From the NCBI GenBank assembly GCA_041653595.1, contig JBAZFB010000004.1, positions 14,757 to 78,756 of the forward strand: a stretch of 64,000 nucleotides of DNA, in the 5' to 3' direction. The position numbers were made by a program, and so were the translations under genes. The notes under the pieces were generated by a model. It was not told where the DNA came from, searched no databases, and worked only from the letters and a program-made list of their open reading frames with translations. Positions 1,696 to 17,011 of this stretch are shown piece after piece. Positions within the stretch are counted from its first letter, which is position 1, and each line of letters starts with the position of its first letter. This DNA is from Candidatus Omnitrophota bacterium. Lineage in GTDB: Bacteria; Omnitrophota; Gorgyraeia; Pluralincolimonadales; Pluralincolimonadaceae.

Positions 1696-1724
1696 TTGAC
1701 AAAGAGTGCTTAAGGTGATATATT
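1696..1724 (+). promoter_or_regulatory. Sigma-70-like promoter: TTGACA, 17 nt spacer, TATATT, upstream of the PEP-CTERM gene.
   Basis: TTGACA lies at 1696-1701, a 17 nt spacer follows, and TATATT lies at 1719-1724, in a 293 bp AT-rich intergenic region. This would give a leader of roughly 200 nt. Confidence 0.45.
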
Positions 1725-1934
1725 TCCTTTGATAGTTATACCAGAGTATACTTGCCTTGTTATTCAATAATCATTTAATCCTTGTAGAAACATCTTTGTT
1801 TCCAATTAAATAGTATACTAGGATATACTAATCAAAGGAAAGGGGGTTGGTAAATGGTCAAAAGCTTAATAGCGGTAAAGGAAGAGATCAGCCAAACAAT
1901 TTCAACATTTCAAAAAGAAGGAGGTGAAACAATA

Positions 1935-2603
1935 ATGATGAAGTACATGGTAGTGATTGCAGCGATGTTATTGGTAAGCGGTTCGGCGTTCGGTACAACT
2001 TTGTATGACTTCGAGTCAGGCACGCAGGATTGGTCAGCTCAGACTTATGTAGACAGCCAGGCTATATCCGCCGTTGCGCAATCCAGCGCCCAGGCAAAAT
2101 CCGGTTCATCTTCATTGATGGGAACGACTCACTTGGTTGCGACGAACCCGGCCGATGCTAATTACAGCAAGGGTGAGGTCAAGATCGAAAGAGGCGCATC
2201 TAACGCGCTTAATCTGCAAGGAGTACTGGCTTCTGTGTCGGTCTTCGGACCTACCGGCGCGAAGGGAGGGAATCCTTCGTCCCCCAACGGATGGCAGATG
2301 TTCTTTAAAGACACTTCCTGGAAGTCGTGGTACGGTCCGTGGAGTGATTTGACGGAGAATACCTGGCAGACGTTATCGGTAACGCCAGGTTCTACGGTCC
2401 CGGCTTTTGTCGATTCGGGTTTTGACCCCACGCAGATCATGGTCATGGGCGTCAAGATCGGTACCGGTGGTTCGGCCACAGGGACCTATGACGGTCCCGT
2501 CTATGTCGACGACTACACCGTGGTCCCTGAACCGGCGAGCATGCTTCTTCTCGGCAGCGGTCTGATTGGCATCTTTGGTTTCGCGAGAAAGAAGAAAGCG
2601 TAG
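1935..2603 (+). CDS. PEP-CTERM sorting-domain protein with an N-terminal signal peptide and a CBM-like beta-sandwich domain.
   Basis: A strong SD (aagaaggaggtgaaacaataATGATG) precedes the start. The signal peptide reads MMKYMVVIAAMLLVSGSAFG. The C-terminus VPEPASMLLLGSGLIGIFGFARKKKA is a canonical PEP-CTERM (VPEP, TM helix, basic tail). 'YDFESGTQDW' is a CBM_4_9-like start. The ORF track begins at 1854, but that in-frame extension would precede the signal peptide. Confidence 0.8.
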   Translation: MMKYMVVIAAMLLVSGSAFGTTLYDFESGTQDWSAQTYVDSQAISAVAQSSAQAKSGSSSLMGTTHLVATNPADANYSKGEVKIERGASNALNLQGVLASVSVFGPTGAKGGNPSSPNGWQMFFKDTSWKSWYGPWSDLTENTWQTLSVTPGSTVPAFVDSGFDPTQIMVMGVKIGTGGSATGTYDGPVYVDDYTVVPEPASMLLLGSGLIGIFGFARKKKA

Positions 2604-2659
2604 TAAAAATTCGACAGTAGAGGTACAATAAGAAAAATAATAAAGGGGGTATTAAAGCT

Positions 2660-5089
2660 ATGAGGAAAGTTCAAAAGGACTTGCTCCCTCACCCGAAAAT
2701 AGCTTTAAGCACCCCCTTTTTTATCTCCGGGAGGAACAATAGGGGCGTCGCCCTTATCCTCACGGTAGGGGTGTTGGCCCTTATCCTGCTCGTCGGCACT
2801 TCCTTTGCCATCAACATGATAGCGGACCTCAAGTCGGCGAAAAACTTCAGGAATGCCGCGGAAGCGAAATATCTCGCCGAGGCCGGGATAAACAGGGCGA
2901 TCTCCGAACTCCTCTACGGCACCGAAGGATTTGTAAGCGACGCGGTCGACTCGTCGGATGAGCTTTGGGCGCAGAGCCCAGCTTATAATACGCCGGTAGG
3001 TAACGGCGGTTATAGGGTAGATAAAATATATGATTGCGCGGGCCAGATATGCATAAACGACGCAAATCCTAACCTAAGCGTTATACTGGAGAACCTGGTC
3101 GCTTCCCTTGGCGCGCCCCTGTCCGCCGGCGATGGCGCGGCGATAGTCACTAATCGTCCCGCTGCCGGTTATACCACAAAGGAAACAATAATAGAAGCCC
3201 TTCCCGGAGCGGCGCTTGCCGACAAAAAGGCAAAATACAATAAGATAAAGGACCATATAACCTTACAGGCATTTATAGATTACGATGTAATAAGCCCCGC
3301 GTCGCCTTATCCCGCGGCGCCCAGGGCGCCGGTAAACGTGAATACCGCATCAAGGGAGGTATTGATCGCGGTCCTGACGGGGATAAGCGACGGCACGAAT
3401 ACTATGACTTCCGCGAAGGCCGCTGCCCTCACCGACCATCTTATAAATAACCGCCCTTACGGGACCTACGACCAGTTGTGGGGCATGCTCTTGTCCGCAG
3501 AGACGCTCGGTTATATCGCCGCCGGCGACGCTGCTGCCGTCATGGCGAACGCCAACCCGAACACGGACCTGATGCGCGCGAACCCCAATTATTCATGGCG
3601 GTATAAGCATGTATCGAGGTATGATCCCGCCAATCCCGACATCCAGGCCTATTACGACGCGAATGGCGTCCCCCTCACGGTAGATAAGACCGCGCTCTCG
3701 GTTTATACGACGGAATTCTGCTTCAACTCCGGCGGATATTATGAGATCAACGCGACCGGGTTCATAAATGACGCGTCAGGGAACCAGGTGGCATCTAAAA
3801 GCCTGCAGGCGGTCGTAAAACTTTTCGATATCTGGAAACAGACTACCCAGGCCCAGTTCGCGCAGGGCACGATAAGTAATACCGAGCTCTATCCGGAGTA
3901 CGACCAGGCCTCTTCCGGCGTATCTCCCGCCGCCTATGACGGGCAGGTAATGCTCACGACAAGGAAAGAAGCAGCCCCTTCCGGAACACCGCATTTCAAG
4001 ATCGATTACGCAGATAAGGCCAATCATCTGAACGCCGACAGCGCGGGGGGAAACGCTGCCAGGCAGACGAGCGGCGTCACAGGCCCTATCCCGAGGGAGG
4101 CCGGCATACTTGCTAATCCTGCGGGCAATCTTATGCCTGACGGGGTATTTTATCCCCGCGATGGACAGACTATAGATTGGTTTTATCCAGAAAACAATAT
4201 AGAGGCGAGCAGGGGCTCTATAGAGATATGGTTTAAGCCGAATTTCTATGAAAGATGGGTGACGTTTCCTACCTATGATTCGGGTAAGATATTTGAAACG
4301 CAGACCAGATCTTTTTGGGATGCCGACGGCAATGAATGGAAATGGTCCAATTCTTCCATTGATATGTATATGGCCAGGGGTTCCGGCGAGACCTCGTGTA
4401 AAGTCGTCGTCAGGGTCCACGGGAAAGACGGCCTGGAGCATAATTTTTCTTATTGGCTTTGGGGCGTCAGCAGTTCCTGGGGGGCGGGGACGTGGCACCA
4501 CCTGGCTTTTGTGTGGGACTTTAATACCGCGGAACAGCATATGTATATAGACGGGATCAGCCAATATGATAATTCGCTGGCCATCCAGCCATACGGGTTT
4601 ACCGGATTTCAGGGCCTGCAGTTCGGCTGCGATACGAACGCGAACGAGCCTCCGAACGGCACTATGGATGAGATACGCGTATTCCCGACGATGTTAAATG
4701 CATCCGACATCGGCAACGATTGCGCTGCCGGAAGATACTACGATGTGGGGGACGCCTCTTTTACGTCTTCTTCGCATGCGGCGGGCGCGGTAAGACTTGG
4801 GACTATATCATGGACCGAACACGTCTCGGACATGAACGGCAACCCTATTATCCCGGGTGCGGACATAACTTTTGACGTTTTTGACGGCGCGAATTGGCTA
4901 GGCAACAGCTCATCCAGGTCTAACCCGGCGGGCAATCCGCTCAATGTCGTTACCGGCGGCACGGGTGATATCAGGTATAACGCCTATTTCCTGGAATCCG
5001 GGGACGGCCTCCTTGATTCGCCGGTCCTGGACGATGTGACGATAACTTATCAAAAACGCGCGAAGATATTATACTGGAGAAATATATAA
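2660..5089 (+). CDS. GspK-like minor pseudopilin (T2SS protein K / PilX-N family) with a large C-terminal extension containing a LamG / concanavalin A-like lectin domain.
   Basis: The N-terminus RGVALILTVGVLALILLVGTSFA, followed by a helix, resembles E. coli GspK 'RGMALVVVLVLLAVMMLVTITLS'. 'VNVNTASREVLIAVLTGI' matches the GspK 'ININTLDVTQSVILEAL' helix-hairpin-helix motif. The C-terminal region has LamG_3-like signatures (SIEIWFKPNFYERW…WHHLAFVWDFNTAEQHMYIDGIS…GLQFGCDT…MDEIRVF). An RBS (aaagggggtattaaagctATG) precedes the start. Confidence 0.75.
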   Translation: MRKVQKDLLPHPKIALSTPFFISGRNNRGVALILTVGVLALILLVGTSFAINMIADLKSAKNFRNAAEAKYLAEAGINRAISELLYGTEGFVSDAVDSSDELWAQSPAYNTPVGNGGYRVDKIYDCAGQICINDANPNLSVILENLVASLGAPLSAGDGAAIVTNRPAAGYTTKETIIEALPGAALADKKAKYNKIKDHITLQAFIDYDVISPASPYPAAPRAPVNVNTASREVLIAVLTGISDGTNTMTSAKAAALTDHLINNRPYGTYDQLWGMLLSAETLGYIAAGDAAAVMANANPNTDLMRANPNYSWRYKHVSRYDPANPDIQAYYDANGVPLTVDKTALSVYTTEFCFNSGGYYEINATGFINDASGNQVASKSLQAVVKLFDIWKQTTQAQFAQGTISNTELYPEYDQASSGVSPAAYDGQVMLTTRKEAAPSGTPHFKIDYADKANHLNADSAGGNAARQTSGVTGPIPREAGILANPAGNLMPDGVFYPRDGQTIDWFYPENNIEASRGSIEIWFKPNFYERWVTFPTYDSGKIFETQTRSFWDADGNEWKWSNSSIDMYMARGSGETSCKVVVRVHGKDGLEHNFSYWLWGVSSSWGAGTWHHLAFVWDFNTAEQHMYIDGISQYDNSLAIQPYGFTGFQGLQFGCDTNANEPPNGTMDEIRVFPTMLNASDIGNDCAAGRYYDVGDASFTSSSHAAGAVRLGTISWTEHVSDMNGNPIIPGADITFDVFDGANWLGNSSSRSNPAGNPLNVVTGGTGDIRYNAYFLESGDGLLDSPVLDDVTITYQKRAKILYWRNI

Positions 5090-6169
5090 ATGAAAAAGGG
5101 AATATGTTTCATCTCTCTTATATTTGCTCTGTCATTGGCGTGCCGGGCCTCATTCGCGGACACGGTGACGCTCAATAACGGCCGCTCGCTCGAAGGAGAG
5201 ATACTCGAAGAGAACGGCGCGACCATGACTTTAAGGACGAAAATAGGAAAGGTAATTTTCAAACGCGCCGATGTCGCCTCGGAGAAACGCACGGAGCTGC
5301 CCGAGGGATTCTTCGGCGCGAGGGCGGAGGAGAAGCCCCGGGTCACGGTAAATCCGGTGCCGCTCAAGGCCGAGGGTTACGGCGAGGCGAATTCCGGGAA
5401 ATTTAATTTGAACGTTTCGGCCGAGATGAAAAGTTCTTACAACGGCGACGCTATTCTCGTTAAGTATAAGACAAACCTTCCGCAGAAGACCGTCCTCTTC
5501 CTGCAGGTCAGGGCGCTCAACCAGGTTATCGTCACGCGCAAGCATGCGGTGGAAGGGCAGTCATTTGCGATAAGGTTCGGCCCGTTCAAGGAGAAGAGAT
5601 TCTCGCCGGGCATCTATGTAGTCGAGGTCTCCTGCATAGCCTCAAGGCAGGAGAGCGAAGAGATAAAGAAGAAACTCGAAGGCGTTGGCGATATCGTCGC
5701 GACCGCGGAGATCCGCGTAGGGTCTCCGGACGAGGCAGAGGGGGCTACCGGCAAGCGCAGGAAGGAGTTGGCGGCCGAACTTAAGGAACTGGACAGCCTT
5801 TACAATAAGCTGAGCCTGGAATACGAATCCCAAAAGAAGAAATTCAACAAAGAGAGATGGGAATCGTTTACGAACGACTTTGAGGGCACGATAGAGAAGA
5901 TAAAGGATGCGGACCTGGCGTACCGGAAGGTCGCGATAGTCATGGACTACCCGGCGCAGGAGAACGCCAAGATATCTATCGCGGATATTTTAAGGAAGCT
6001 CCGGATCCGTTATGCGGAAAGTCTATACAAGGCGAACAACCTCGAGTTCAAGGTCCCTCCGTCGGATGACGGCAGGGGAGCGGAAGCGCTCGACGTCAAC
6101 ACGAAGAGCCTTCTTGCCTCTGCCCGTAGTTTTGTAGAGAAATCGGAAAAAAAGACGGAGCAAAAGTAA
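5090..6169 (+). CDS. Hypothetical secreted protein with a signal peptide and a C-terminal coiled-coil-rich region, translationally coupled to the GspK-like gene.
   Basis: ATG is 1 nt after the upstream stop (tataaATGaaaaag). The signal peptide is MKKGICFISLIFALSLACRASFA. The C-terminal half is K/E-rich and low-complexity helical. No recognisable catalytic motif. Confidence 0.7.
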   Translation: MKKGICFISLIFALSLACRASFADTVTLNNGRSLEGEILEENGATMTLRTKIGKVIFKRADVASEKRTELPEGFFGARAEEKPRVTVNPVPLKAEGYGEANSGKFNLNVSAEMKSSYNGDAILVKYKTNLPQKTVLFLQVRALNQVIVTRKHAVEGQSFAIRFGPFKEKRFSPGIYVVEVSCIASRQESEEIKKKLEGVGDIVATAEIRVGSPDEAEGATGKRRKELAAELKELDSLYNKLSLEYESQKKKFNKERWESFTNDFEGTIEKIKDADLAYRKVAIVMDYPAQENAKISIADILRKLRIRYAESLYKANNLEFKVPPSDDGRGAEALDVNTKSLLASARSFVEKSEKKTEQK

Positions 6170-6210: not shown

Positions 6211-7455
6211 ATGCGCGGAATAGAACGCGGAAGTGCTATATGGTGTCTTTTTTTATTTTTTGCGGCCCTCATTTTATCCTGCCTTTCCGGCTGCGCGAAG
6301 AAATCTTCCGAGAAAGAGATACTCATGTGGCTCGTCGGTTCCGAGAAGCAGGCCCAGAAGATAACCGAGCTCGGGCGGGATTTTTATAAAGAGACCGGAG
6401 TCAAAGTGAGATGCGAGGCGCTCTCGTGGGGAGAGGCCCATTCGAAATACCTGACCTCGGTCGTAGGGGAAGTCACCCCCGACATCGGGACGATGGGGCT
6501 TACCTGGGGGACCGAATTCGGCAACCTGGGCGCGATGGTCGACCTCCAGAAGGCTTTTCCTGCGGACCTCAAGGATATAGAGGACAACATCTTTCCCGGC
6601 CTCGCGGAATCCATAAGATATAAAAACAGCGTCTATGCCGTCCCGTTCGATATAAGCGAATATGTAATGTATTACAGGATCGACATAGTCGGAAGGCCGC
6701 CGCGGGACTGGAAAGAACTGGCTTCCCTTCTGGCCGATCTCAACCGCGACGGCAAGTCGATGATAATCGACTGGGGCGGCCTCGGATGGATAGGATACAG
6801 CCCGTTCCTGTGGCAGGCGGGCGGGGATTTTTATAATAAGGAGAAGACGGCCGCCACGCTCGATACCGCGGCCGCGGAAACCGGGATGGAATTCTTTACC
6901 GGCCTATATAAGAGATACGGCGTGCCGAAAGAGGAGAAACCCGTAGAGCAAGGATTTAAGATGGGCGACTACCCGATATTCATCTCCGGGAACTGGAAGA
7001 TGAAGAGCCTTGCGGACGTTGCCCCGGAGATAAACGGTAAATGGGGCATATCGCCGCTCCCGGCCGGGCCCACAGGAAAGAGGACCGGGTTCATCGGCGG
7101 CAGGGTTATGGGAGTCTTCTCCCAGTCCAAATTAAAGGATGAGTCGTGGGAGTTCATCAAGTATCTCTCCCGCCCGGCGGTCCAGCTGAAATTATACGAG
7201 GCGACCCTCGAGTCGCACGATACCTATCTTCCCCCGAACATAAAGACGTGGGATATCCTCCCGATGGATGCGGCGTTCAAGGAACCGCTTAAGGCGCAGG
7301 CGATGGACTCGAAAGGGCCGCCGTCATTATTGGGCTGGGATGACAGCACGAGGTTCATAGATACGGCCATACAACTTATCGTCCTGAAGGGCAAGGACGT
7401 GAAGGCCGCTTTAGCCGGCGCGAACGACGAGTTGAACAGGAGGCTCAGGAAGTGA
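6211..7455 (+). CDS. ABC transporter extracellular solute-binding lipoprotein (family 1, CUT1 sugar type).
   Basis: The LSGC lipobox follows the signal peptide. The length and composition are typical of sugar SBPs. The gene is followed by two MalF/MalG-type permeases. Confidence 0.8.
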   Translation: MRGIERGSAIWCLFLFFAALILSCLSGCAKKSSEKEILMWLVGSEKQAQKITELGRDFYKETGVKVRCEALSWGEAHSKYLTSVVGEVTPDIGTMGLTWGTEFGNLGAMVDLQKAFPADLKDIEDNIFPGLAESIRYKNSVYAVPFDISEYVMYYRIDIVGRPPRDWKELASLLADLNRDGKSMIIDWGGLGWIGYSPFLWQAGGDFYNKEKTAATLDTAAAETGMEFFTGLYKRYGVPKEEKPVEQGFKMGDYPIFISGNWKMKSLADVAPEINGKWGISPLPAGPTGKRTGFIGGRVMGVFSQSKLKDESWEFIKYLSRPAVQLKLYEATLESHDTYLPPNIKTWDILPMDAAFKEPLKAQAMDSKGPPSLLGWDDSTRFIDTAIQLIVLKGKDVKAALAGANDELNRRLRK

Positions 7456-8354
7456 AGTCGGTAGCCAAGGAATTGAACAAGCAGAAATGGGCGTATATCT
7501 TCATCGGGCCGTCCTTTATCATCTTCGCCGTATTTCTCATAATACCGGTCTTCGCGTCGCTTTACTGGAGCCTGACCGAATACAATATCCTCCAGCCGCC
7601 CAAATTTGTCGGCCTGCAGAATTATATAAATATAATATTCCACGACCCGCGTTTCTGGAAGGCGATGGTAAACACCGCGATCTATGTGGCCGGCACGGTC
7701 CCGACGAGCATAGCTATCTCGCTGCTTCTCGCCGTGGCCATCGACCAGAACATCCGTTTCAAGAACTGGTTCAAGACCTTCTTCTTCATCCCGAGTATCA
7801 CTTCGATTATAGCGATCTCGGTCATCTGGAAGTGGCTTTACGCGAGCGGGAAATACGGCCTCTTTAACCACGCCCTTTCGTCGATCGGGATAGCGCCGGT
7901 AAACTGGCTCGGAGTGGATTGGACGCTTCCCTCGATAATAATCATGAGCGTCTGGGGCGGTCTCGGGTATAACATGATACTCTTCATCGCCGGGCTGCAA
8001 GGCATCCCCCAGGTCTTCTATGAGGCGGCCGAGGTCGACGGGGCGAGCGAATGGGACAAGTTCCGCAACATCACGCTTCCGCTCCTGGCGCCGACGATGG
8101 TCTTTGTCACCATAATGTCGATCATAAGCGCGTTCCAGGTCTTCGACGCGGTATATATCATGACCTACAGTTCGGAGGGGGCGGTGGGCGGGGCGCTCGA
8201 CTGCGCGCTGACGATAGTCGCGTATCTCTACGATACCGGCTTCCAGAGGTTCGCGATGGGCTACGCCTCGGCGCTGGCGTACCTGATATTCTTCGTCCTC
8301 TTCATCGTAACGGTGATAAACATGAGACTGGTCGAGAAAAAGATAGAGTATTGA
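7452..8354 (+). CDS. Carbohydrate ABC transporter permease (MalF/UgpA-like).
   Basis: Multi-TM protein with an EAA loop 'EAAEVDGASEWDKFRNITLPLLAPT'. GTG start overlaps the SBP stop (GTGA). Confidence 0.85.
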   Translation: MKSVAKELNKQKWAYIFIGPSFIIFAVFLIIPVFASLYWSLTEYNILQPPKFVGLQNYINIIFHDPRFWKAMVNTAIYVAGTVPTSIAISLLLAVAIDQNIRFKNWFKTFFFIPSITSIIAISVIWKWLYASGKYGLFNHALSSIGIAPVNWLGVDWTLPSIIIMSVWGGLGYNMILFIAGLQGIPQVFYEAAEVDGASEWDKFRNITLPLLAPTMVFVTIMSIISAFQVFDAVYIMTYSSEGAVGGALDCALTIVAYLYDTGFQRFAMGYASALAYLIFFVLFIVTVINMRLVEKKIEY

Positions 8355-8355
8355 T

Positions 8356-9240
8356 ATGGACATAAACGGGATAAAAGAGCTGGAGAGAAGAGGCACCGTC
8401 AGGGTCGCGAGCAAGAAGAAGCAGCAGCGGACCGCCAACCTCCTCATTTATACTTTCCTGATAGCCGGCTCATTCATAATGATCGTGCCGTTCGTGTGGA
8501 TGATAGTCACGTCATTCAAACCGCTCGACGAGATAAATACCTATCCGCCGAGCTTCTTTATCCGCAAGCCGACGATCGCGGCATACCTTGAACTCTTCAG
8601 GATAATACCGATGGGCAGGTATTTCCTCAACAGCCTTTTTGCCACGACGGCGATCACGCTGGCCAACATATTCTTCTGTTCCCTGGCCGGCTACGCCTTC
8701 GCCAAGCACAGGTTCTTCGGCAGGGACAAGCTCTTCCTCCTGCTTGTGGGTTCGATGATGATACCCTGGCAGGTGAACCTGATACCGAGTTTCGTCATAG
8801 TGAAGAAGTTCGGGTGGCTTAACTCGTTTTACGGGTTGATAATCCCGGCGATGTCCGGCGCGTTCGGGATATTCCTGATGAGGCAGTTCATAATGAACAT
8901 CCCGGATGACCTGATAGACGCGGCTAAGATAGACGGCTGTTCCGAGTTCACTATATACCGCAGGGTGATCTTGCCGCTCATACAGCCGGCGCTCGCCTCG
9001 CTGGCGATATTTACCTTTATGGCCCAATGGAACAATTTCGTCTGGCCGCTCGTGATAATATATTCCTCGAAGATGAGGACGATACCGCTCGCGCTCTCTG
9101 TCCTGAACGGGCAGTTCGGGACGAATTTCGCGATGGTCATGGCCGGCGCCGTGGTCGCCACGGCCCCCGTATTGATAGTATTTATAGCCTTCCAGAAATA
9201 TTTCGTAAAGGGTATAGCGCTTACCGGCCTGAAGGCGTGA
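8356..9240 (+). CDS. Carbohydrate ABC transporter permease (MalG/UgpE-like).
   Basis: EAA loop 'AAKIDGCSEFTIYRRVILPLIQPAL'. Six TM segments. No ATPase gene in the locus, which is usual for CUT1 systems sharing an MsmK-like ATPase. Confidence 0.85.
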   Translation: MDINGIKELERRGTVRVASKKKQQRTANLLIYTFLIAGSFIMIVPFVWMIVTSFKPLDEINTYPPSFFIRKPTIAAYLELFRIIPMGRYFLNSLFATTAITLANIFFCSLAGYAFAKHRFFGRDKLFLLLVGSMMIPWQVNLIPSFVIVKKFGWLNSFYGLIIPAMSGAFGIFLMRQFIMNIPDDLIDAAKIDGCSEFTIYRRVILPLIQPALASLAIFTFMAQWNNFVWPLVIIYSSKMRTIPLALSVLNGQFGTNFAMVMAGAVVATAPVLIVFIAFQKYFVKGIALTGLKA

Positions 9241-9243
9241 CGC

Positions 9244-11370
9244 ATGAAAAATCCCCTCCCCGTCGTCCTGGCGTGCGTTTTTGTATTGGCCGCGGCCGAA
9301 GCCCACGCCTATAAGCCGGCCGCGATAAATTCGGCCATCGCTTCTTCCGAAAAAGTGGGCATGTACGGCCTGTTCGAACTTACGGTTGACCTGAGCGCCG
9401 AATACGAAAACCCGTTTGATCCCTCCCAGGTCGACCTCTCCTGCATCTTCAAATCACCGTCCGCCAAGGAAATAAAAATCCCGGGATTCCTTTACTCATC
9501 GTCAGGGAAGAGGCCGGTCTGGAAGATACGTTTCTCCCCGAATGAAGAGGGAGAGTGGGCCTATTGCGCGGCAGTCGCAGACAGGCGGTCTTCTGCCAGG
9601 TCGCCGGCCGGAAGGTTCATGTGCGTCCCGTCCGGCGCGAGCGGACCGGTGAGGGTAAGCAAGATCGATCCCTGTTATTTTGAGACCTCCGACGGAAAAT
9701 TCTTCTTCCCTGTCGGCATGAACGTCGCGTGGCTCGGTGGGGATACGCTGTATAATTACGACGGCTATTATAAGAAGATAAGCGGCAACGGCGGGAACTG
9801 GTCGCGGCTGTGGCTGTGTTCCTGGGGCCTCGGGCTTGAATGGAAGAAGGACAAGTCGTACGGCGGCCTCGGGAAATACAATCTCAGGAACGCGGACAGG
9901 ATAGATAAGATACTGGGGATGGCCGAAAAATACGGCATGCGCGTCCAGCTTACGATAAATATCCACGGCCAGTTTAGCACTTCATCAAATTCTGAGTGGG
10001 GCGTAAACCCATATAACGCCAAGAACGGCGGGCCATGCAAGTCCCCGCCGGATTTTTTTACGAACGAGGACGCAACAAAGCTCTTCAAGAACCAGCTCCG
10101 TTATATAATCGCCAGGTGGGGATACAGCCCGGCGATATTCTCGTGGGAGCTTTGGAACGAGATTGACCTGACCGACGGTTTCGACGAGGCCCGCGCCGGC
10201 GAATGGCACAAGGAGATGGCGGATTATATAAAGGGCGCGGACCCGCTCGGCCATATGATAACCACGAGTTTCTCAAAGCCGCTGGATTACTCGCTCTGGC
10301 GCGCGCCATACATCAGCTATACGCAGATCCACCAGTACAGCGACGTTATGATAGACGAGATAGTCTTCCGCGCGAAGGAGTTCCGGGAGAGGTACGGAAA
10401 GCCGGTCCTTATCGCTGAAGTAGCCAGCACCGCGAAGGAAGGGACAATAGAGCGCAGGCAGGATCCCCAGGGGATAAGGTTACATAACGCGCTCTGGTCT
10501 TCGGCCGCCTCGCCTGCAGCCGGGACCGCGATGTATTGGTGGTGGGACAGCTATATCAAGCCGCGAAACCTTTTCTACGAGCTTAGGGCGGTCTCCGGGT
10601 TTACCGCCGGCGATGACAGGCGCGGTAAAAAGTTCACGGATATCGATTACAGGATAATTTACCCCAAGGATACCTATAATACGCTCACTTTCACGCCTTA
10701 TCTCGACTGGCAGGCCTCGACCGCCTCGGAATTCATCGTGGGGAACGACGGGCGCGTCTCGGATATCGACAAACTTTCGAGGTTTTTCCAGGGCTCGGCG
10801 CACACGGACATGAAGGTCACTCCGGTATTCGCCGTAGATTATCCCGAGGACGGCTCGTTCACCCTTAATATCGACATGGTATCCGAGGGCGGGGCCAAAG
10901 CTGCCATCTGGCTTGACGACCGGATGGTCCTGGAACATATCTATAAGCCGCTCCCGAGTTATAAGCATCTCGATGACAGTTTCGAGGTCGGCGTGAGCAA
11001 GGGGAAGCACCGCATAAAGATAACCAATGACGGGCCCGATTGGTTCAGGGTCAGGAACATCTGCCTGAGCGGCTATTCCAACCCGCTCCAGGTGGTAGGT
11101 ATCCGGTCCGGCGATTCGGCGTATCTTTGGTTCAAAAACAGGGATGACACGGTCGATAACCGCAGGAAAGGCGTCAGGTATACCTGGATAGAGATACCCA
11201 GGGTCGTCATAACCGGTTTGAAGGACGGGGATTACGCAGTCGAATATTTCGATACCATCGCCGGCGGCGTGATCCGGAGCGAGAAAACCGGGTGCCGGAA
11301 CGGCAGCCTCGAGCTGGTCATACCAACCTTTACCACCGATCTGGGCTGCAAGGTCAAACTCTCCAGATAA
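9244..11370 (+). CDS. Secreted clan GH-A (GH5-like) glycoside hydrolase with N-terminal and C-terminal beta-sandwich domains. Paralog of the gene at 1..1641.
   Basis: Signal peptide MKNPLPVVLACVFVLAAAEA. An N-terminal Ig-like region (…KIPGFLYSSSGKRPVWKIRFSPNEEGEWAY) is followed by a TIM-barrel region with WELWNEID and a C-terminal beta-sandwich. The architecture resembles DUF5060+DUF4038-type putative glycosidases (unverified). Confidence 0.7.
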   Translation: MKNPLPVVLACVFVLAAAEAHAYKPAAINSAIASSEKVGMYGLFELTVDLSAEYENPFDPSQVDLSCIFKSPSAKEIKIPGFLYSSSGKRPVWKIRFSPNEEGEWAYCAAVADRRSSARSPAGRFMCVPSGASGPVRVSKIDPCYFETSDGKFFFPVGMNVAWLGGDTLYNYDGYYKKISGNGGNWSRLWLCSWGLGLEWKKDKSYGGLGKYNLRNADRIDKILGMAEKYGMRVQLTINIHGQFSTSSNSEWGVNPYNAKNGGPCKSPPDFFTNEDATKLFKNQLRYIIARWGYSPAIFSWELWNEIDLTDGFDEARAGEWHKEMADYIKGADPLGHMITTSFSKPLDYSLWRAPYISYTQIHQYSDVMIDEIVFRAKEFRERYGKPVLIAEVASTAKEGTIERRQDPQGIRLHNALWSSAASPAAGTAMYWWWDSYIKPRNLFYELRAVSGFTAGDDRRGKKFTDIDYRIIYPKDTYNTLTFTPYLDWQASTASEFIVGNDGRVSDIDKLSRFFQGSAHTDMKVTPVFAVDYPEDGSFTLNIDMVSEGGAKAAIWLDDRMVLEHIYKPLPSYKHLDDSFEVGVSKGKHRIKITNDGPDWFRVRNICLSGYSNPLQVVGIRSGDSAYLWFKNRDDTVDNRRKGVRYTWIEIPRVVITGLKDGDYAVEYFDTIAGGVIRSEKTGCRNGSLELVIPTFTTDLGCKVKLSR

Positions 11371-11438: not shown

Positions 11439-12464
11439 ATGAAACGTTTCGATAAATCCAGTATAACGATAAAAGACGTGGCAAAACGGGCGGGGGTCGC
11501 TCACTCAACCGTCTCTCTTGTTATGAACGACCGTGAACACGTGTCGCCGAAGCTGCGCGAACGTATCCTTAAGATCGCCAAAGAGATGGGCTATATGCCC
11601 AACCTGGTCGCGCGCAGCCTTATCAGCAAGAAATCGTCCACCGTAGGGGTGGTATTCCCCGAGAACCCGCATTTCTTCACCATAACGTACTTCCTTATGA
11701 TAATAGAGGGCATACAGAACGCCTGTAAGAAATACGACAGGGCGCTCATGTTCTTCAGCCTCGACCAGACCAAAGGCGAGTCGTATTACCAGATATCCCG
11801 CAAATGGCTTATCGACCTCATGGTCATCCTGAACGTCGATTACACAAGAGATATCTCCAAAGACATCCGCGACCTAAAAGACAACGGCATAGCCTTCTCT
11901 TTAGTGACAAAATATAACGGCAAAGAAAAGGTCAACTCGGTCTGCGTCGATAATTTCGAGGGCGTGAGATTGGCCCTGGAATATCTGGCCTCGCAAGGCC
12001 ACAAGCGCGTCGGGTTCATAAGCGGCAACCCGAACTCGGCAGACGGCCCCGAAAGGCTGCAGGCGTTCAAGGTCCTATCCAAAAAGATGGGCTTTGACCA
12101 GGACGAGGAGCTTATCGTCTACGGCGATTTCACGTTCGAGAGCGGCGAGAGGGAGGTCCCGAAGCTCCTGGGGCTCAAGAAACGCCCCACCGCGATATTC
12201 GCGGCGAGCGATTATATGGCCATCGGCGCGATGCGCGTCATGAAAGCGCAGGGTATCTCTATACCCAAAGACATGGCGTTGATGGGGTTCGATAATACCC
12301 TCGAGGTCGCTTATGTCGAACCCCCGCTGACGACGATAAGGCAGCCTCTCCAGGAGATGGGAGAGAAGGCGGTCGACCTCGCAGTCCGCTCCATGAACGA
12401 CGAGAATTTTGAACCCCAGATGGCAGTGATAAAACCCGAACTCATCAAGAGGCAATCATGCTGA
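11439..12464 (+). CDS. LacI-family transcriptional regulator.
   Basis: N-terminal HTH 'ITIKDVAKRAGVAHSTVSLVMND…SPKLRERILKIAKEMGYMPNLVARSL' followed by a periplasmic-binding-protein-like sugar-binding domain. Overlaps the start of the GH2 gene by 7 nt. Confidence 0.9.
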   Translation: MKRFDKSSITIKDVAKRAGVAHSTVSLVMNDREHVSPKLRERILKIAKEMGYMPNLVARSLISKKSSTVGVVFPENPHFFTITYFLMIIEGIQNACKKYDRALMFFSLDQTKGESYYQISRKWLIDLMVILNVDYTRDISKDIRDLKDNGIAFSLVTKYNGKEKVNSVCVDNFEGVRLALEYLASQGHKRVGFISGNPNSADGPERLQAFKVLSKKMGFDQDEELIVYGDFTFESGEREVPKLLGLKKRPTAIFAASDYMAIGAMRVMKAQGISIPKDMALMGFDNTLEVAYVEPPLTTIRQPLQEMGEKAVDLAVRSMNDENFEPQMAVIKPELIKRQSC

Positions 12465-15400
12465 AAAAAACCTTCCCGTATTTTGCGATAGCGGTCTTCC
12501 TGACGTGCGCGTTCGCGCCTGCGCAGGTGTATCCCGCCCAGGACGCGGGACCCGGGGTCCAGCCCCCCACATTCGAGGTAAAAGAGATAGACGGCCTGTA
12601 TCTCCCGTTCCAGAACGGGATACCTTTCCCGTCATGGGAGAGGCAGGACCGCCCTTACATTGAATTGGACGGCTCATGGAGGTCCGAACGGCAGGGCGTC
12701 GACCACAAACTTACGCTTTACAAGAGGACGCCGGAGACCTTAAAACTCCTCGAAGAAGAGAGCGCCGGCAGGTATAAGGCCGATTACGACGACAGCGCGT
12801 GGAAAGAGAAGCCTGTCCCGGGCGTCGAGGACCCGGCCCCTGACAGGTATATGGACGGGGCATGGTACAGGAGGCATTTCACAGTCCCGGCCGACGCGTC
12901 CGGCAAGTACGTTAAGCTCATGTTCGAGGCCGCGAATTATTTTACGGATGTGTGGATCAACGGCAAATGGATAGGCTGCCATGAAGGCGGCTATACGCCG
13001 TTCGCGTTCGATATAAGCCAATACCTTAACTATGGGCAGGATAATGTCATAGCCGTCCGCGTAGATAATATCCCGTGGCTCCCCAACGGAGACGCCTCGT
13101 CCGAAGCGCTCAGTACCAACGACCATAACATAGTCCCTTACGTTACAGGCGACTGGTGGAATTACGGCGGGATAACAAGGAGCGTATATATAGAGATATC
13201 TCCGCCGGTCTCTATTGTCCGCGCCGACATAAAACCGAAACTGGTCAACGAGAAAGATTCCGAACTGACGATAGATGTGACCGTTTATAACCGGAGCGAT
13301 GCCGAATTCGATTCATCCCTTGCCCTCAAGATCGTCCAGGCCAATGTGAAGGACGACAACTTAGAGGAAGCGTCTGTAAAGAAGATAGCTACAGGCAGGA
13401 CCGTCTCCCTGGAAGGCGAAACCTCCAAACAGGTAACGTTGAAGGCGGGCGAGGCGAAGGTGTTCAGGTTCTCGCTGAAATCGGGCGGGCTCAAACCCTG
13501 GTCGCCGGAGTCGCCTAACCTTTACGTGTTACGGGTAACCCTCGGGGACAGGAAAGCAAGATCGGGCGAGCTCTACACCCAGTTCGGCGTCAGGGAGGTA
13601 AGCGTAGATAAAGCCAACGCTAAACTGCTCCTGAACGGCAAAGAGATATTCCTCCGCGGTATCGCGCGCCATGAAGTATTTTACGGAGAGCCCGGCCCGC
13701 TGGTTTACGGCCCGGCCGCGGTCACGGCGGATTTCAAGTACATAAAGGACGCCAACGCGAATTTCGTCAGGACGGCCCATTATCCCAACCAGCAGCAGAC
13801 CTACACTATCGCCGACAGGATGGGGCTTCTCGTATGGGAGGAGATACCCATGTTCTGGTTCACCGGGCCGGAGTTCCTCATCCAGAAAAACGTCCGGGGC
13901 ATCGGAAGGCAAATGTGGTTCGAGATGATATACCGCGATTATAACAGGCCGTCGGTCATAATCTGGGGCGCGTGCAACGAATGCAGCTGGCAGGGGGAGA
14001 GGGCCGCTTTTATAAAAGACCTGCGGGAGAACGCTTATAAGGTCGACGGGACCCGGCTTGTAGCGCAGTCAGCCTCGGGAAGCGATCCTACCGACGCCAC
14101 CCAGAAGGAATGCGATATCATAGGGTTTACGACTTATTACGGTATATTCTACGGCAACTCGTATTTTGCCGATACGAAAGAAGCGCTCAGGAAGACCCAT
14201 GAAGCTTTTCCGGACAAACCGGTCATATCCACCGAATACGGCGTCTGGGCCCGTTACGGGGACCTTGCCCAGGAAGCGTCGCAGGTCGAAGTGGCGAAAG
14301 ATACCTTCAAGGCTTTCAGGGACTTCCCGTTCGTCGCCGGCGCGACATGGTGGACGATCGCGGATTGGCACACGATGATCAACGAGCCGGAGGTTATGGG
14401 CACTATGACGATCGACAGGAAATTCCAGAAGCCGGTATATTTCCAGCTGCAGCGGCAATATGCCTCGCTTTTAGGCGACCTGGCGGTCGAGCTTAAAGAA
14501 CCGAAGGAAGAAGCGGTCTTGCAGGGAAAAGCCGGTATATCGGCCGAGATAAAAGGGGAAGAAAAGCCCGAGGCGGTGGAACTGATGGTAGAAGGGAAAC
14601 TCTTGGGCCGGCTATACCAGAAGAAAGACCTTTACCGGATGGAATTGGACACGTCAAAACTTCCGGAAGGCAAACATATGCTTATCGTCCGCGCGACCGG
14701 CAAGAAGAGTTATTATGTCTCCGGTTTCGTCCGGGTCATCGTAGATAATATAGACGAACTTCCTGCGGTCACTGTCAATCTCAAAGATAACGACGCAGTT
14801 ATAGGCAAAGTCTCGCTGAAGGCCGTCGCGGCCGACGACAGGGGCATCGCCTCGGTCACTTATTCCGTCGACGGGGGAGAGCCCAAGCAGATGGAAGGCA
14901 TAGGCGAGGGAAACTACCAGGCGGTATGGGACGCCTCGCAGCTTCCCGACGGCTCTACTCATGATATTAAATTCATAGTGACGGACACGGGCAGCCAGAC
15001 CTCCGGGGCAACGGCCAAAGTAACTATCGATAATAAGCCGGGCAAGTATGCGGAGTTGCCGTTCGACCACGACTGGATCTCATGGAACACAAGCCGCAAT
15101 GACGGGACCGGCTATGACTTCCCGGCGGAGGAACTGCCGGACTCGAATTCCGAGTTCATATTCAACGGCGCGGAAAAGGTAAAGTTCAAATTCGGCGACA
15201 AGGCCGACGGCCAAAAGAACACCGTCGAATGCGGCAGGCAAAAGATAGCTTTCCCGCCCGGGTATTATACGAAAGTATATATTCTTGGCAGCATGCATGA
15301 CGGCGGTTCGAAACAGACGTTCGTCCTGAACTACACCGACGGGACATCGGCGAAGATCGTGACAGGTTTTTCAGACTGGTGGGGCGGCAATCCCATCTAC

Positions 15401-17011
15401 GGCGAAGAAGCAGCCGTAGTGACGACGTACCATCATGAATCGGCCGGCGACAGGAAGCCCGGCGTGGCGCTTTATATGCAGACGCTCGAGCCGGACAAGA
15501 GCAAGATCCTCTCTTCGATCACCCTGCCCGCGGACAAGAGATTGAATATATTCGCGATCACCCTTGAGGGGGAGGCCTCTAACATTCCCTTGCCCGAGCC
15601 CGCTATAAGTAAGCCCGGGCCCAACTCATCGGTGGGCGGCGCCGTAAAGATCGCGGCGGAGGACAAGCAGGAAAATATAGCGAAGATCGATTATTCCGTG
15701 GACGGGGGAGAGTGGATGCCGATGTCGCCTTCGGCCGCAGGGACTTATACCGCCGAATGGGACACGTCAAAAGTGCCGGGGATAAATCATACGATAAGCG
15801 TAAAGGCGACCGATAAGATCGGGCAGATAAATATAAAAAGCATAGACGTGAGGGTCGTAAATAAGGTCACCATAGTATTCCCGTTCGACGGCGCCAGCAT
15901 ATATAAAATGGCTACTCTTATGGTCGAGCCGAGGGCCAACACGGAAGTCGATAAACTGGAGTATTCAATCGATAACGGCCGGTTTATCGAGATGACGCCG
16001 AATATGGGGCTCTACACGGCCGAGTGGAAGATAGACGAGGGGTATAAGCCCGGCTCAAGCCATACGCTGATGGTCAGGGAGAACGAGAAAGGCGGCGGGG
16101 TCACGATAGACACGGTCAAGGTAACGGCCGATACCGTCAAGATAATGATAGCGGAGCCGGTCAAGGGCCATACGATAAAGGTCGACAAGAACATAAGGGA
16201 CTGGGTAGGCACCGCGCCGGCCCAGGAGAATACGGCGACTATCAGCGGAGGCGAATATATCTGGGAAGACGCCAAAGGCGACGATACCGGAAACGGGCAT
16301 TACACTTATCCGACTAATAAAGCGCTGACTAAAGGCGCCGACCTTAGGGAATTCAGGGCCACATGGGACAACGAGAACCTGTACCTGATGATAAAATGCG
16401 ACCGGCCCGGGGATTTCTGGACGCCTTACAGGATAATAGGCATAGACCAGGACGGCGCTAAAGGCGGCAAGGGCGGCACGCAGGTCCTTGCCCAGGGCGA
16501 CGGGGACCAGGATACCGGCTGTTACGGTAATCTTAAGGTCTCGCCGGATTTGGCGTGCGAATATGTGATAGGGATATTCAATTCCTACAAGGGCCGGATC
16601 TGGGACGCGAAGGGGAGAACTATCGCCCGCAAAGAAGGAGATAGCAACGATACGCAGGGGTTCATGATCGACGACGCCAACTGGAACTCGGTCGAGGTCG
16701 CTATTCCTTTGAAACTCATCGGCGGAAGCCCTGCGGGCCATACGTGGAGGTTCGTTGTGGGGACCGGCCAGCAGGACAACGGAATTTTCAGGAAAGTGGA
16801 TAAGGACGTGTCCGAGTGGCACGGCGGCGGGGGCGAGGCGAACAGCTCGAACCCGTACACTTACGACCTGGCAAGCCCGGACAGGAAGACGCAGGAATAT
16901 GAGTTGAACAGCTACAAGAAGGACGGGGACTCTTCGGACCCGTCGACGTTCGCGGTAATAAACAGATCTTATCTTGCGGTCACTTTCAGCGACGAGGCAA
17001 AGTCCCCGTAA
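12458..17011 (+). CDS. GH2 glycoside hydrolase (beta-glucuronidase/beta-mannosidase/beta-galactosidase-like) fused to Ig-like repeats and a C-terminal CBM9/DOMON-like module.
   Basis: Signal peptide. GH2 sugar-binding domain (…YFTDVWINGKWIGCHEGGYTPFAFDISQYL…). GH2 TIM barrel with acid/base 'IIWGACNECS' and nucleophile 'PVISTEYGV'. The last ~300 aa (from ~nt 16165) are paralogous to the three downstream stand-alone proteins. Confidence 0.85.
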   Translation: MLKKTFPYFAIAVFLTCAFAPAQVYPAQDAGPGVQPPTFEVKEIDGLYLPFQNGIPFPSWERQDRPYIELDGSWRSERQGVDHKLTLYKRTPETLKLLEEESAGRYKADYDDSAWKEKPVPGVEDPAPDRYMDGAWYRRHFTVPADASGKYVKLMFEAANYFTDVWINGKWIGCHEGGYTPFAFDISQYLNYGQDNVIAVRVDNIPWLPNGDASSEALSTNDHNIVPYVTGDWWNYGGITRSVYIEISPPVSIVRADIKPKLVNEKDSELTIDVTVYNRSDAEFDSSLALKIVQANVKDDNLEEASVKKIATGRTVSLEGETSKQVTLKAGEAKVFRFSLKSGGLKPWSPESPNLYVLRVTLGDRKARSGELYTQFGVREVSVDKANAKLLLNGKEIFLRGIARHEVFYGEPGPLVYGPAAVTADFKYIKDANANFVRTAHYPNQQQTYTIADRMGLLVWEEIPMFWFTGPEFLIQKNVRGIGRQMWFEMIYRDYNRPSVIIWGACNECSWQGERAAFIKDLRENAYKVDGTRLVAQSASGSDPTDATQKECDIIGFTTYYGIFYGNSYFADTKEALRKTHEAFPDKPVISTEYGVWARYGDLAQEASQVEVAKDTFKAFRDFPFVAGATWWTIADWHTMINEPEVMGTMTIDRKFQKPVYFQLQRQYASLLGDLAVELKEPKEEAVLQGKAGISAEIKGEEKPEAVELMVEGKLLGRLYQKKDLYRMELDTSKLPEGKHMLIVRATGKKSYYVSGFVRVIVDNIDELPAVTVNLKDNDAVIGKVSLKAVAADDRGIASVTYSVDGGEPKQMEGIGEGNYQAVWDASQLPDGSTHDIKFIVTDTGSQTSGATAKVTIDNKPGKYAELPFDHDWISWNTSRNDGTGYDFPAEELPDSNSEFIFNGAEKVKFKFGDKADGQKNTVECGRQKIAFPPGYYTKVYILGSMHDGGSKQTFVLNYTDGTSAKIVTGFSDWWGGNPIYGEEAAVVTTYHHESAGDRKPGVALYMQTLEPDKSKILSSITLPADKRLNIFAITLEGEASNIPLPEPAISKPGPNSSVGGAVKIAAEDKQENIAKIDYSVDGGEWMPMSPSAAGTYTAEWDTSKVPGINHTISVKATDKIGQINIKSIDVRVVNKVTIVFPFDGASIYKMATLMVEPRANTEVDKLEYSIDNGRFIEMTPNMGLYTAEWKIDEGYKPGSSHTLMVRENEKGGGVTIDTVKVTADTVKIMIAEPVKGHTIKVDKNIRDWVGTAPAQENTATISGGEYIWEDAKGDDTGNGHYTYPTNKALTKGADLREFRATWDNENLYLMIKCDRPGDFWTPYRIIGIDQDGAKGGKGGTQVLAQGDGDQDTGCYGNLKVSPDLACEYVIGIFNSYKGRIWDAKGRTIARKEGDSNDTQGFMIDDANWNSVEVAIPLKLIGGSPAGHTWRFVVGTGQQDNGIFRKVDKDVSEWHGGGGEANSSNPYTYDLASPDRKTQEYELNSYKKDGDSSDPSTFAVINRSYLAVTFSDEAKSP

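Follow-up and report, generated by a model that had tools for sequence, protein, structure and literature searches.

Described cap subunits and lectin-bearing pilins

In most accounts, type 4 filaments are presented as a single machine whose set of tip proteins is fixed, and glycan-utilisation loci as a combination of enzymes, binding proteins and a transporter. The cap minor pseudopilin of the T2SS, GspK or XcpX, is represented by PDB structures 3CI0 and 5VTM. In Myxococcus xanthus, three PilY1/minor-pilin clusters serve one T4aP machine, and PilX, a cap pilin which like GspK has no Glu5, contacts the Sec-exported non-pilin PilY1 (PMC7541494). Pilins of modular build that carry PF13385 or PA14 modules are frequent (PMC8179133), and PilC of Streptococcus sanguinis, which belongs to the modular minor type 4 pilins and has an Ig-like and a ConA-like lectin module, is a proven glycan-binding pilin that was modelled at the pilus tip (PMC9934059). 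The type IV pilus of Caldicellulosiruptor bescii is linked to carbohydrate-binding proteins, is induced by a polysaccharide and attaches to xylan and cellulose (bioRxiv 10.1101/614800). T4aP genes have been found in nearly all Omnitrophota (PMC10066038).

We analysed a 64-kb stretch of contig JBAZFB010000004.1 of a Candidatus Omnitrophota bacterium (the window), in which the gene at 2660-5089 on the plus strand encodes an 809-aa product, here called the K-like protein; all other features described are on the same strand. A sequence-only reading had characterised this product as a GspK-like protein with a lectin-like domain in a glycan locus, and this was confirmed. The data link filament tips with glycan utilisation, in that a cap pseudopilin whose lectin insert is swappable lies inside a catabolic locus and exists in several versions per genome. 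We see an even chance that the K-like protein is a GspK/PilX-type cap (minor) pseudopilin of a T2SS/T4P-like filament, carrying a lectin-type module that is glycan-binding, locus-specific and co-regulated. Lectin-bearing modular pilins are already known, and a GspK-type carrier within a glycan locus is a new variant.

The N-terminal module is of the GspK type

The K-like protein starts with a class III (prepilin) signal, ...NNRG|VALILTVGVLALILLVG, in which a leader of 29 aa (2660..2746) ends in Arg-Gly, with a predicted prepilin-peptidase site after G29 and with Leu in place of Glu at position +5. The leader is followed by a pilin-type alpha-1 helix (aa 30-86, 2747..2917; aa 28-86 in the structural model), the first part of which is hydrophobic, and this region is matched by the PilX_N and GspK N-terminal profiles. 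Within 110 unique family sequences, regex analysis identified a Gly with 14 or more hydrophobic or small residues behind it in 99 and an Arg or Lys at position -2 in 82, while a Glu at +5 was never found; this lack is a hallmark of GspK and PilX (PMC7541494). The N_methyl motif (PF07963, IPR012902) had no match in the K-like protein at E ≤ 0.01, as expected for GspK-type subunits without Glu5.

The globular part of the module (2918..3892) contains two helix-hairpin-helix (HhH)/SAM-like repeats and includes the sequence VNVNTASREVLIAVLTGI (aa 225-242, nt 3332-3385). Pfam T2SSK matches at aa 146-191 and scores 30.1 bits versus a threshold of 24.2, with no single stretch above the threshold alone, and the NCBIfam T2SS_GspK equivalog scores 40.3, far below its cut-off of 130. 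Matches in a sequence-profile search of the PDB were weak (ComEA HhH 1.7e-4, NanA CBM40 2.2e-4, XcpX 0.028), so that a fold comparison was needed; this revealed a pilin fold into which a large helical region of the HhH/SAM-like type is inserted, as in 3CI0 chain K and 5VTM chain X. The GspK-type identity proposed for the N-terminus is supported by profile, fold and context, but the module extends over approximately 410 aa instead of the 330 aa first estimated. Compared with GspK and XcpX, the K-like protein is 2.5 times larger, with a lectin-type insert of approximately 370 aa, its gene lies away from all other pseudopilin genes in a glycan locus, and it has several paralogues per genome as well as a dedicated exported partner.

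A lectin-type module ahead of a conserved C-terminal segment

The assignment of the extension to the LamG family was borne out by profile, fold and context, as it contains a LamG/concanavalin A-like jelly-roll beta-sandwich of the Laminin_G_3 type (4142..4729), placing a pilin module and a ConA/LamG-like domain in one polypeptide. A second beta-sandwich forms the C-terminus (4754..5086, model strands aa 699-808), and its last ~25 residues (LDSPVLDDVTITY...) are common to the whole family, with aa 780-809 being 50-64% identical in alignments, even with a 673-aa operon-encoded K protein. The N-terminal module is likewise kept across the family, while the middle part varies with the type of locus: there was no alignment over aa 527-606 of the LamG region between the mannan and cellulose paralogues, and operon-encoded paralogues carry PA14 or CBM_4_9 domains. 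The lectin-type module had been considered a C-terminal fusion; the module exists, but resembles an insert ahead of the conserved C-terminal segment.

No matches were obtained when only the LamG region (aa 480-700) was used to search for homologues, or when aa 480-809 were searched against PDB sequences, and neither query linked the module at the sequence level to any characterised CBM. From the location in glycan loci and the variation of the module with locus type, we infer that it binds the glycan degraded by its own locus, which would be of mannan type here. LamG domains also mediate protein-protein binding, which counts against a glycan-binding role.

PilC differs from the K-like protein in having a short atypical pilin module without a GspK fold, in being encoded in the pil locus of a monoderm, and in its ligands, which are sialylated or sulfated glycans of the host, bound for adhesion, instead of polysaccharides used as nutrients. 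Relative to the modular pilins, the K-like carrier is of the GspK type, lacks the IPR012902 motif used in the survey of these proteins (PMC8179133), and is spread among catabolic loci. If our interpretation is correct, a GspK-based carrier joins the catalogue of modular pilins, and such carriers are missed by motif-based surveys.

Recurrence in glycan loci and in GspE-F-G-H-I-J-K operons

The K-like gene had been thought to be an isolated orphan, which it is not: it belongs to a three-gene set, consisting of genes for a PEP-CTERM CBM protein, the K-like protein and an exported partner, which recurs in many glycan loci. Orthologues and paralogues (81-33% identity) are present in mannan-type, cellulose-type and other glycan-utilisation loci of Omnitrophota MAGs, with 4-6 copies in single MAGs, and the closest match in a scan of genome contigs is 95% identical, on a 5.6-kb contig. 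Twenty-five unique K-like genes are without nearby pilins, in loci which hold GH, CBM, ABC and LacI genes, and for 19 of these 25 a PEP-CTERM gene is at most three genes away. The occurrence of different K-like versions in several glycan loci suggests exchangeable, sugar-specific pilus tips. A stray decayed duplicate was rejected as an explanation, since the gene is intact and its context is shared, across many MAGs, by homologues of between 81% and 33% identity. All carriers of K-like genes are uncultured.

The partner gene (5090..6169) begins at the base that follows the stop codon of the K-like gene; its product, a Sec-exported protein of 359 aa, belongs to an uncharacterised family. In the model of this product (pLDDT 81), a signal peptide precedes a small barrel of the SH3/Sm-like type at aa 22-69; aa 95-210 form a beta-sandwich, and aa 213-357 a bundle of four helices. 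Nothing informative was obtained with Pfam, NCBIfam, the PDB profile search or Foldseek; matches to Hfq/Sm proteins reflect only the small N-terminal barrel, and matches to FKBP51 were discarded at a TM score of ~0.1. Among the 48 partner-family members in the loci analysed, 36 are immediate neighbours of a K-like gene, and seven more are connected to one through a second partner gene. K-like genes almost always have such a partner gene beside them.

Distant homologues of the K-like protein fill the canonical K slot of GspE-F-G-H-I-J-K operons (loci L032, L034-L042). In L032, with the gene order GspE-GspE-GspF-GspG-GspH-(I)-GspJ-K-PilM, the K protein is 34% identical to the K-like protein over the whole N-terminal module (E 6e-52). 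The MAGs JBAZJG01 and JBAYMW01, which contain mannan-locus orthologues (56% and 55% identity, respectively), each also have a paralogue in a cellulose locus and a GspH-I-J operon with K-like genes behind it, and operon-associated K-like paralogues were found in MAGs carrying close orthologues (L028, L039).

The alternative tip gene sets are reminiscent of M. xanthus, and the K-like protein and its exported partner may mirror the relation between PilX and PilY1. The M. xanthus clusters each encode all four minor pilins and PilY1, whereas the duplication described here is confined to the cap subunit and a partner that is not related to PilY1, with the copies located in catabolic loci with LacI-type regulators. 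C. bescii shares the genomic tie between a pilus system and carbohydrate-binding proteins, but there binding falls to the major pilin, encoded within a complete T4P locus, and there is neither a lectin-bearing cap nor a set of paralogues per locus. The Verru_Chthon cassette protein A (TIGR02600) of Verrucomicrobia and Chthoniobacter is also large, with a GspK-like N-terminus and multiple copies per genome; TIGR02600 matches the N-terminus of the K-like protein (E 6e-6) over 73 positions only, with 24.4 bits versus 332.3, and not over its full length. Verru_Chthon cassettes are described in TIGRFAMs as having B, C and D pseudopilins of their own, which are absent from the K-like locus, where the partner is also a different one.

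Gene content of the host locus

The absence of pilus genes elsewhere in the window, as noted in the sequence-only reading, was upheld: no pilin, prepilin peptidase, ATPase or secretin gene was found in the 64 kb, and there is no gspG-H-I-J-K cluster. The K-like gene is preceded by a gene for a PEP-CTERM-anchored, putative carbohydrate-binding surface protein (1854..2603; Pfam PEP-CTERM E 5.6e-7), orthologues of which carry Mann_GBD_bact and PEP-CTERM. The partner gene is followed by a sugar ABC importer (6211..9240), comprising a lipoprotein solute-binding protein (SBP; SBP_bac_1 E 1e-32, lipobox LSGC) and two BPD_transp_1 permeases, an exported putative glycosidase of the DUF5060 family (9244..11370; Pfam DUF5060 E 1e-14, signal peptide), a LacI-family regulator of the locus (11439..12464; LacI and Peripla_BP_3), which is kept in orthologous loci, and an exported GH2 enzyme with a signal peptide and a Glucodextran_C (SLH-like) cell-surface module (12458..17011).

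No SusC/SusD pair, as in Bacteroidota-type PULs, was found in the window, which has an SBP-dependent ABC importer instead. The SusD and SGBP proteins of Bacteroidota loci are functional analogues only, as they also provide locus-specific, non-catalytic glycan capture, are co-encoded and co-regulated with enzymes and importer, and have a variable binding part that tracks the substrate. They are unrelated in fold and mechanism, being lipoproteins on a TonB-dependent transporter and not filament caps, and uptake in the locus described here is by an ABC importer.

An RNA hairpin covers the start of the K-like gene

A conserved RNA hairpin (2637..2724) contains both the Shine-Dalgarno sequence and the start codon (AUG) of the K-like gene and is followed by a U6 run in this window, where it is present in one copy; it was also found in eight orthologous loci, and has no family in Rfam. 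It has a minimum free energy of -38.1 kcal/mol (z -3.1), and its consensus contains 32 pairs, four of which show compensatory double changes, with four broken cells. Its predicted structure would sequester the ribosome-binding site (RBS) and AUG. The leader of 29 residues, previously highlighted as unusually long, is indeed long for a pseudopilin, with a median of 12 aa in the 110 unique family sequences, but is better explained by the covarying RBS/AUG hairpin than by selection on the peptide. The latter was rejected because the hairpin is nucleotide-invariant across nine loci without synonymous changes, while the codons just 3′ of it vary, and because one covarying pair alters a codon. An alternative start closer to the Arg-Gly motif was not found, as this window has no in-frame ATG, GTG or TTG between the hairpin and the hydrophobic helix.

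Possible function of the K-like protein

We propose that the K-like gene and that of its exported partner may be a duplicated tip module of an Omnitrophota T2SS/T4P-like machine, relocated into a glycan-utilisation locus, with a LamG jelly roll and beta-sandwich having been placed between the GspK core and the short family-conserved C-terminal segment. Transcription of the locus would begin at a promoter ahead of the PEP-CTERM gene and be controlled by LacI, and the RBS/AUG hairpin would allow the cap subunit to be translated only weakly or conditionally. After insertion into the inner membrane and cleavage by prepilin peptidase behind G29, the K-like protein would pair with GspI/J(/H)-type minor pseudopilins encoded elsewhere, and prime and cap the filament. 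Its lectin module, then located at the tip, could bind the polysaccharide degraded by the locus (mannan-type here) and bring it to the PEP-CTERM/SLH-anchored binding proteins and glycosidases, the products being taken up by the ABC importer, so that one machine would receive different caps from different glycan loci.

A role as a pilus-tip glycan-capture adhesin, as suggested earlier, is strengthened by the homologues in the K position of GspE-F-G-H-I-J-K operons, the H-I-J operon in MAGs with close orthologues, the variable middle module that tracks locus type, and the precedents for modular pilins with lectin-type modules and for several tip-gene clusters per machine. It is weakened by the fact that T2SS pseudopili are normally periplasmic, which would put a tip lectin inside the cell envelope and not outside. 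The GspK equivalog score far below its cut-off, the long leader, the lack of pilin, peptidase, ATPase and secretin genes in the 64-kb window, and a partner without recognisable function also speak against a filament cap. The wider scheme is more tentative, and we regard it as possible but somewhat doubtful: in Omnitrophota, and perhaps neighbouring phyla, one T2SS/T4P-like machine would have interchangeable caps, each in a different LacI/GntR-controlled locus with its own partner and PEP-CTERM protein, with a substrate-matched lectin insert and a hairpin gating cap synthesis, and with a role like that of SusD-like proteins in Bacteroidota, either in glycan capture or in cargo selection.

Cargo selection could also be the sole function, with the K-like protein capping a periplasmic, piston-like pseudopilus, and its module and partner recognising the exported proteins of the locus (large glycosidases and PEP-CTERM CBM proteins) and pushing these through the secretin, giving each glycan locus its own secretion adaptor. 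The GspK-type N-terminal module agrees with this, as do the T2SSG-type major and T2SSJ and GspH minor pseudopilins of the canonical operon, the PEP-CTERM gene that almost always adjoins the K-like gene, and the likening of PilY1 at the PilX tip to T2SS substrates at GspK (PMC7541494). A further point in favour is that the enzymes of the locus, with their Sec signal peptides and their modules for the cell surface (Glucodextran_C/SLH-like, PEP-CTERM), must cross the outer membrane. The variable modules are however of carbohydrate-binding types (LamG_3, PA14, CBM_4_9), and the PilM-like genes and literature favour T4P-like filaments in Omnitrophota. We are aware of no case in which a lectin-like insert in GspK selects T2SS cargo, and consider the cargo-selection explanation unlikely.

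We find it improbable that the protein acts independently of a filament, using its N-terminal helix only as an inner-membrane anchor and catching periplasmic oligosaccharides together with the partner for transfer to the adjacent SBP and ABC importer. Such a role would fit the long, atypical leader, the locus without pilin genes, and the position of the K-like gene immediately upstream of the SBP and permease genes in mannan-type loci, but in cellulose-type loci the K-like-partner pair has no adjacent ABC importer. A plain anchor also has no need of a GspK alpha/beta module, while the full GspK fold and the signature of G(-1) without Glu5 are under selection in hundreds of members, including genuine operon K genes. 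Very improbable is a role of the K-like protein and partner in displaying or organising the neighbouring PEP-CTERM carbohydrate-binding proteins on the surface without binding glycans themselves, since, although PEP-CTERM CBM-like genes (Mann_GBD, CBM30, cohesin-like) recur beside the pair in several locus types, there is no exosortase gene in any Pfam-annotated locus, operon-encoded K-partner pairs are mostly without PEP-CTERM neighbours, and we know of no link between pseudopilins and exosortase sorting.

Should the preferred reading of a glycan-binding filament cap hold, it would give very small uncultured bacteria a concrete way to find and hold insoluble or dilute polysaccharides, the K-like and partner genes would be a genomic marker for glycan loci in Omnitrophota and related phyla, and the inserts would be natural lectin modules, the likely ligand of each being open to a guess from its locus. 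Both the partner family and the RBS-masking hairpin are uncharacterised and testable.

Upstream region of the transcription unit

A sigma-70-like promoter candidate is located upstream of the PEP-CTERM gene (1696..1724), with TTGACA and TATATT separated by a 17-nt spacer; as a consensus match only, it has 11 of 12 matching positions and an extended -10 TG. Transcription of the unit to which the K-like gene belongs probably begins here. The true start of the PEP-CTERM gene is probably near 1935, where the signal peptide begins with MMKYMVV. The leader downstream of the promoter candidate holds a 30-nt inverted repeat (1723-1752 and 1812-1841).

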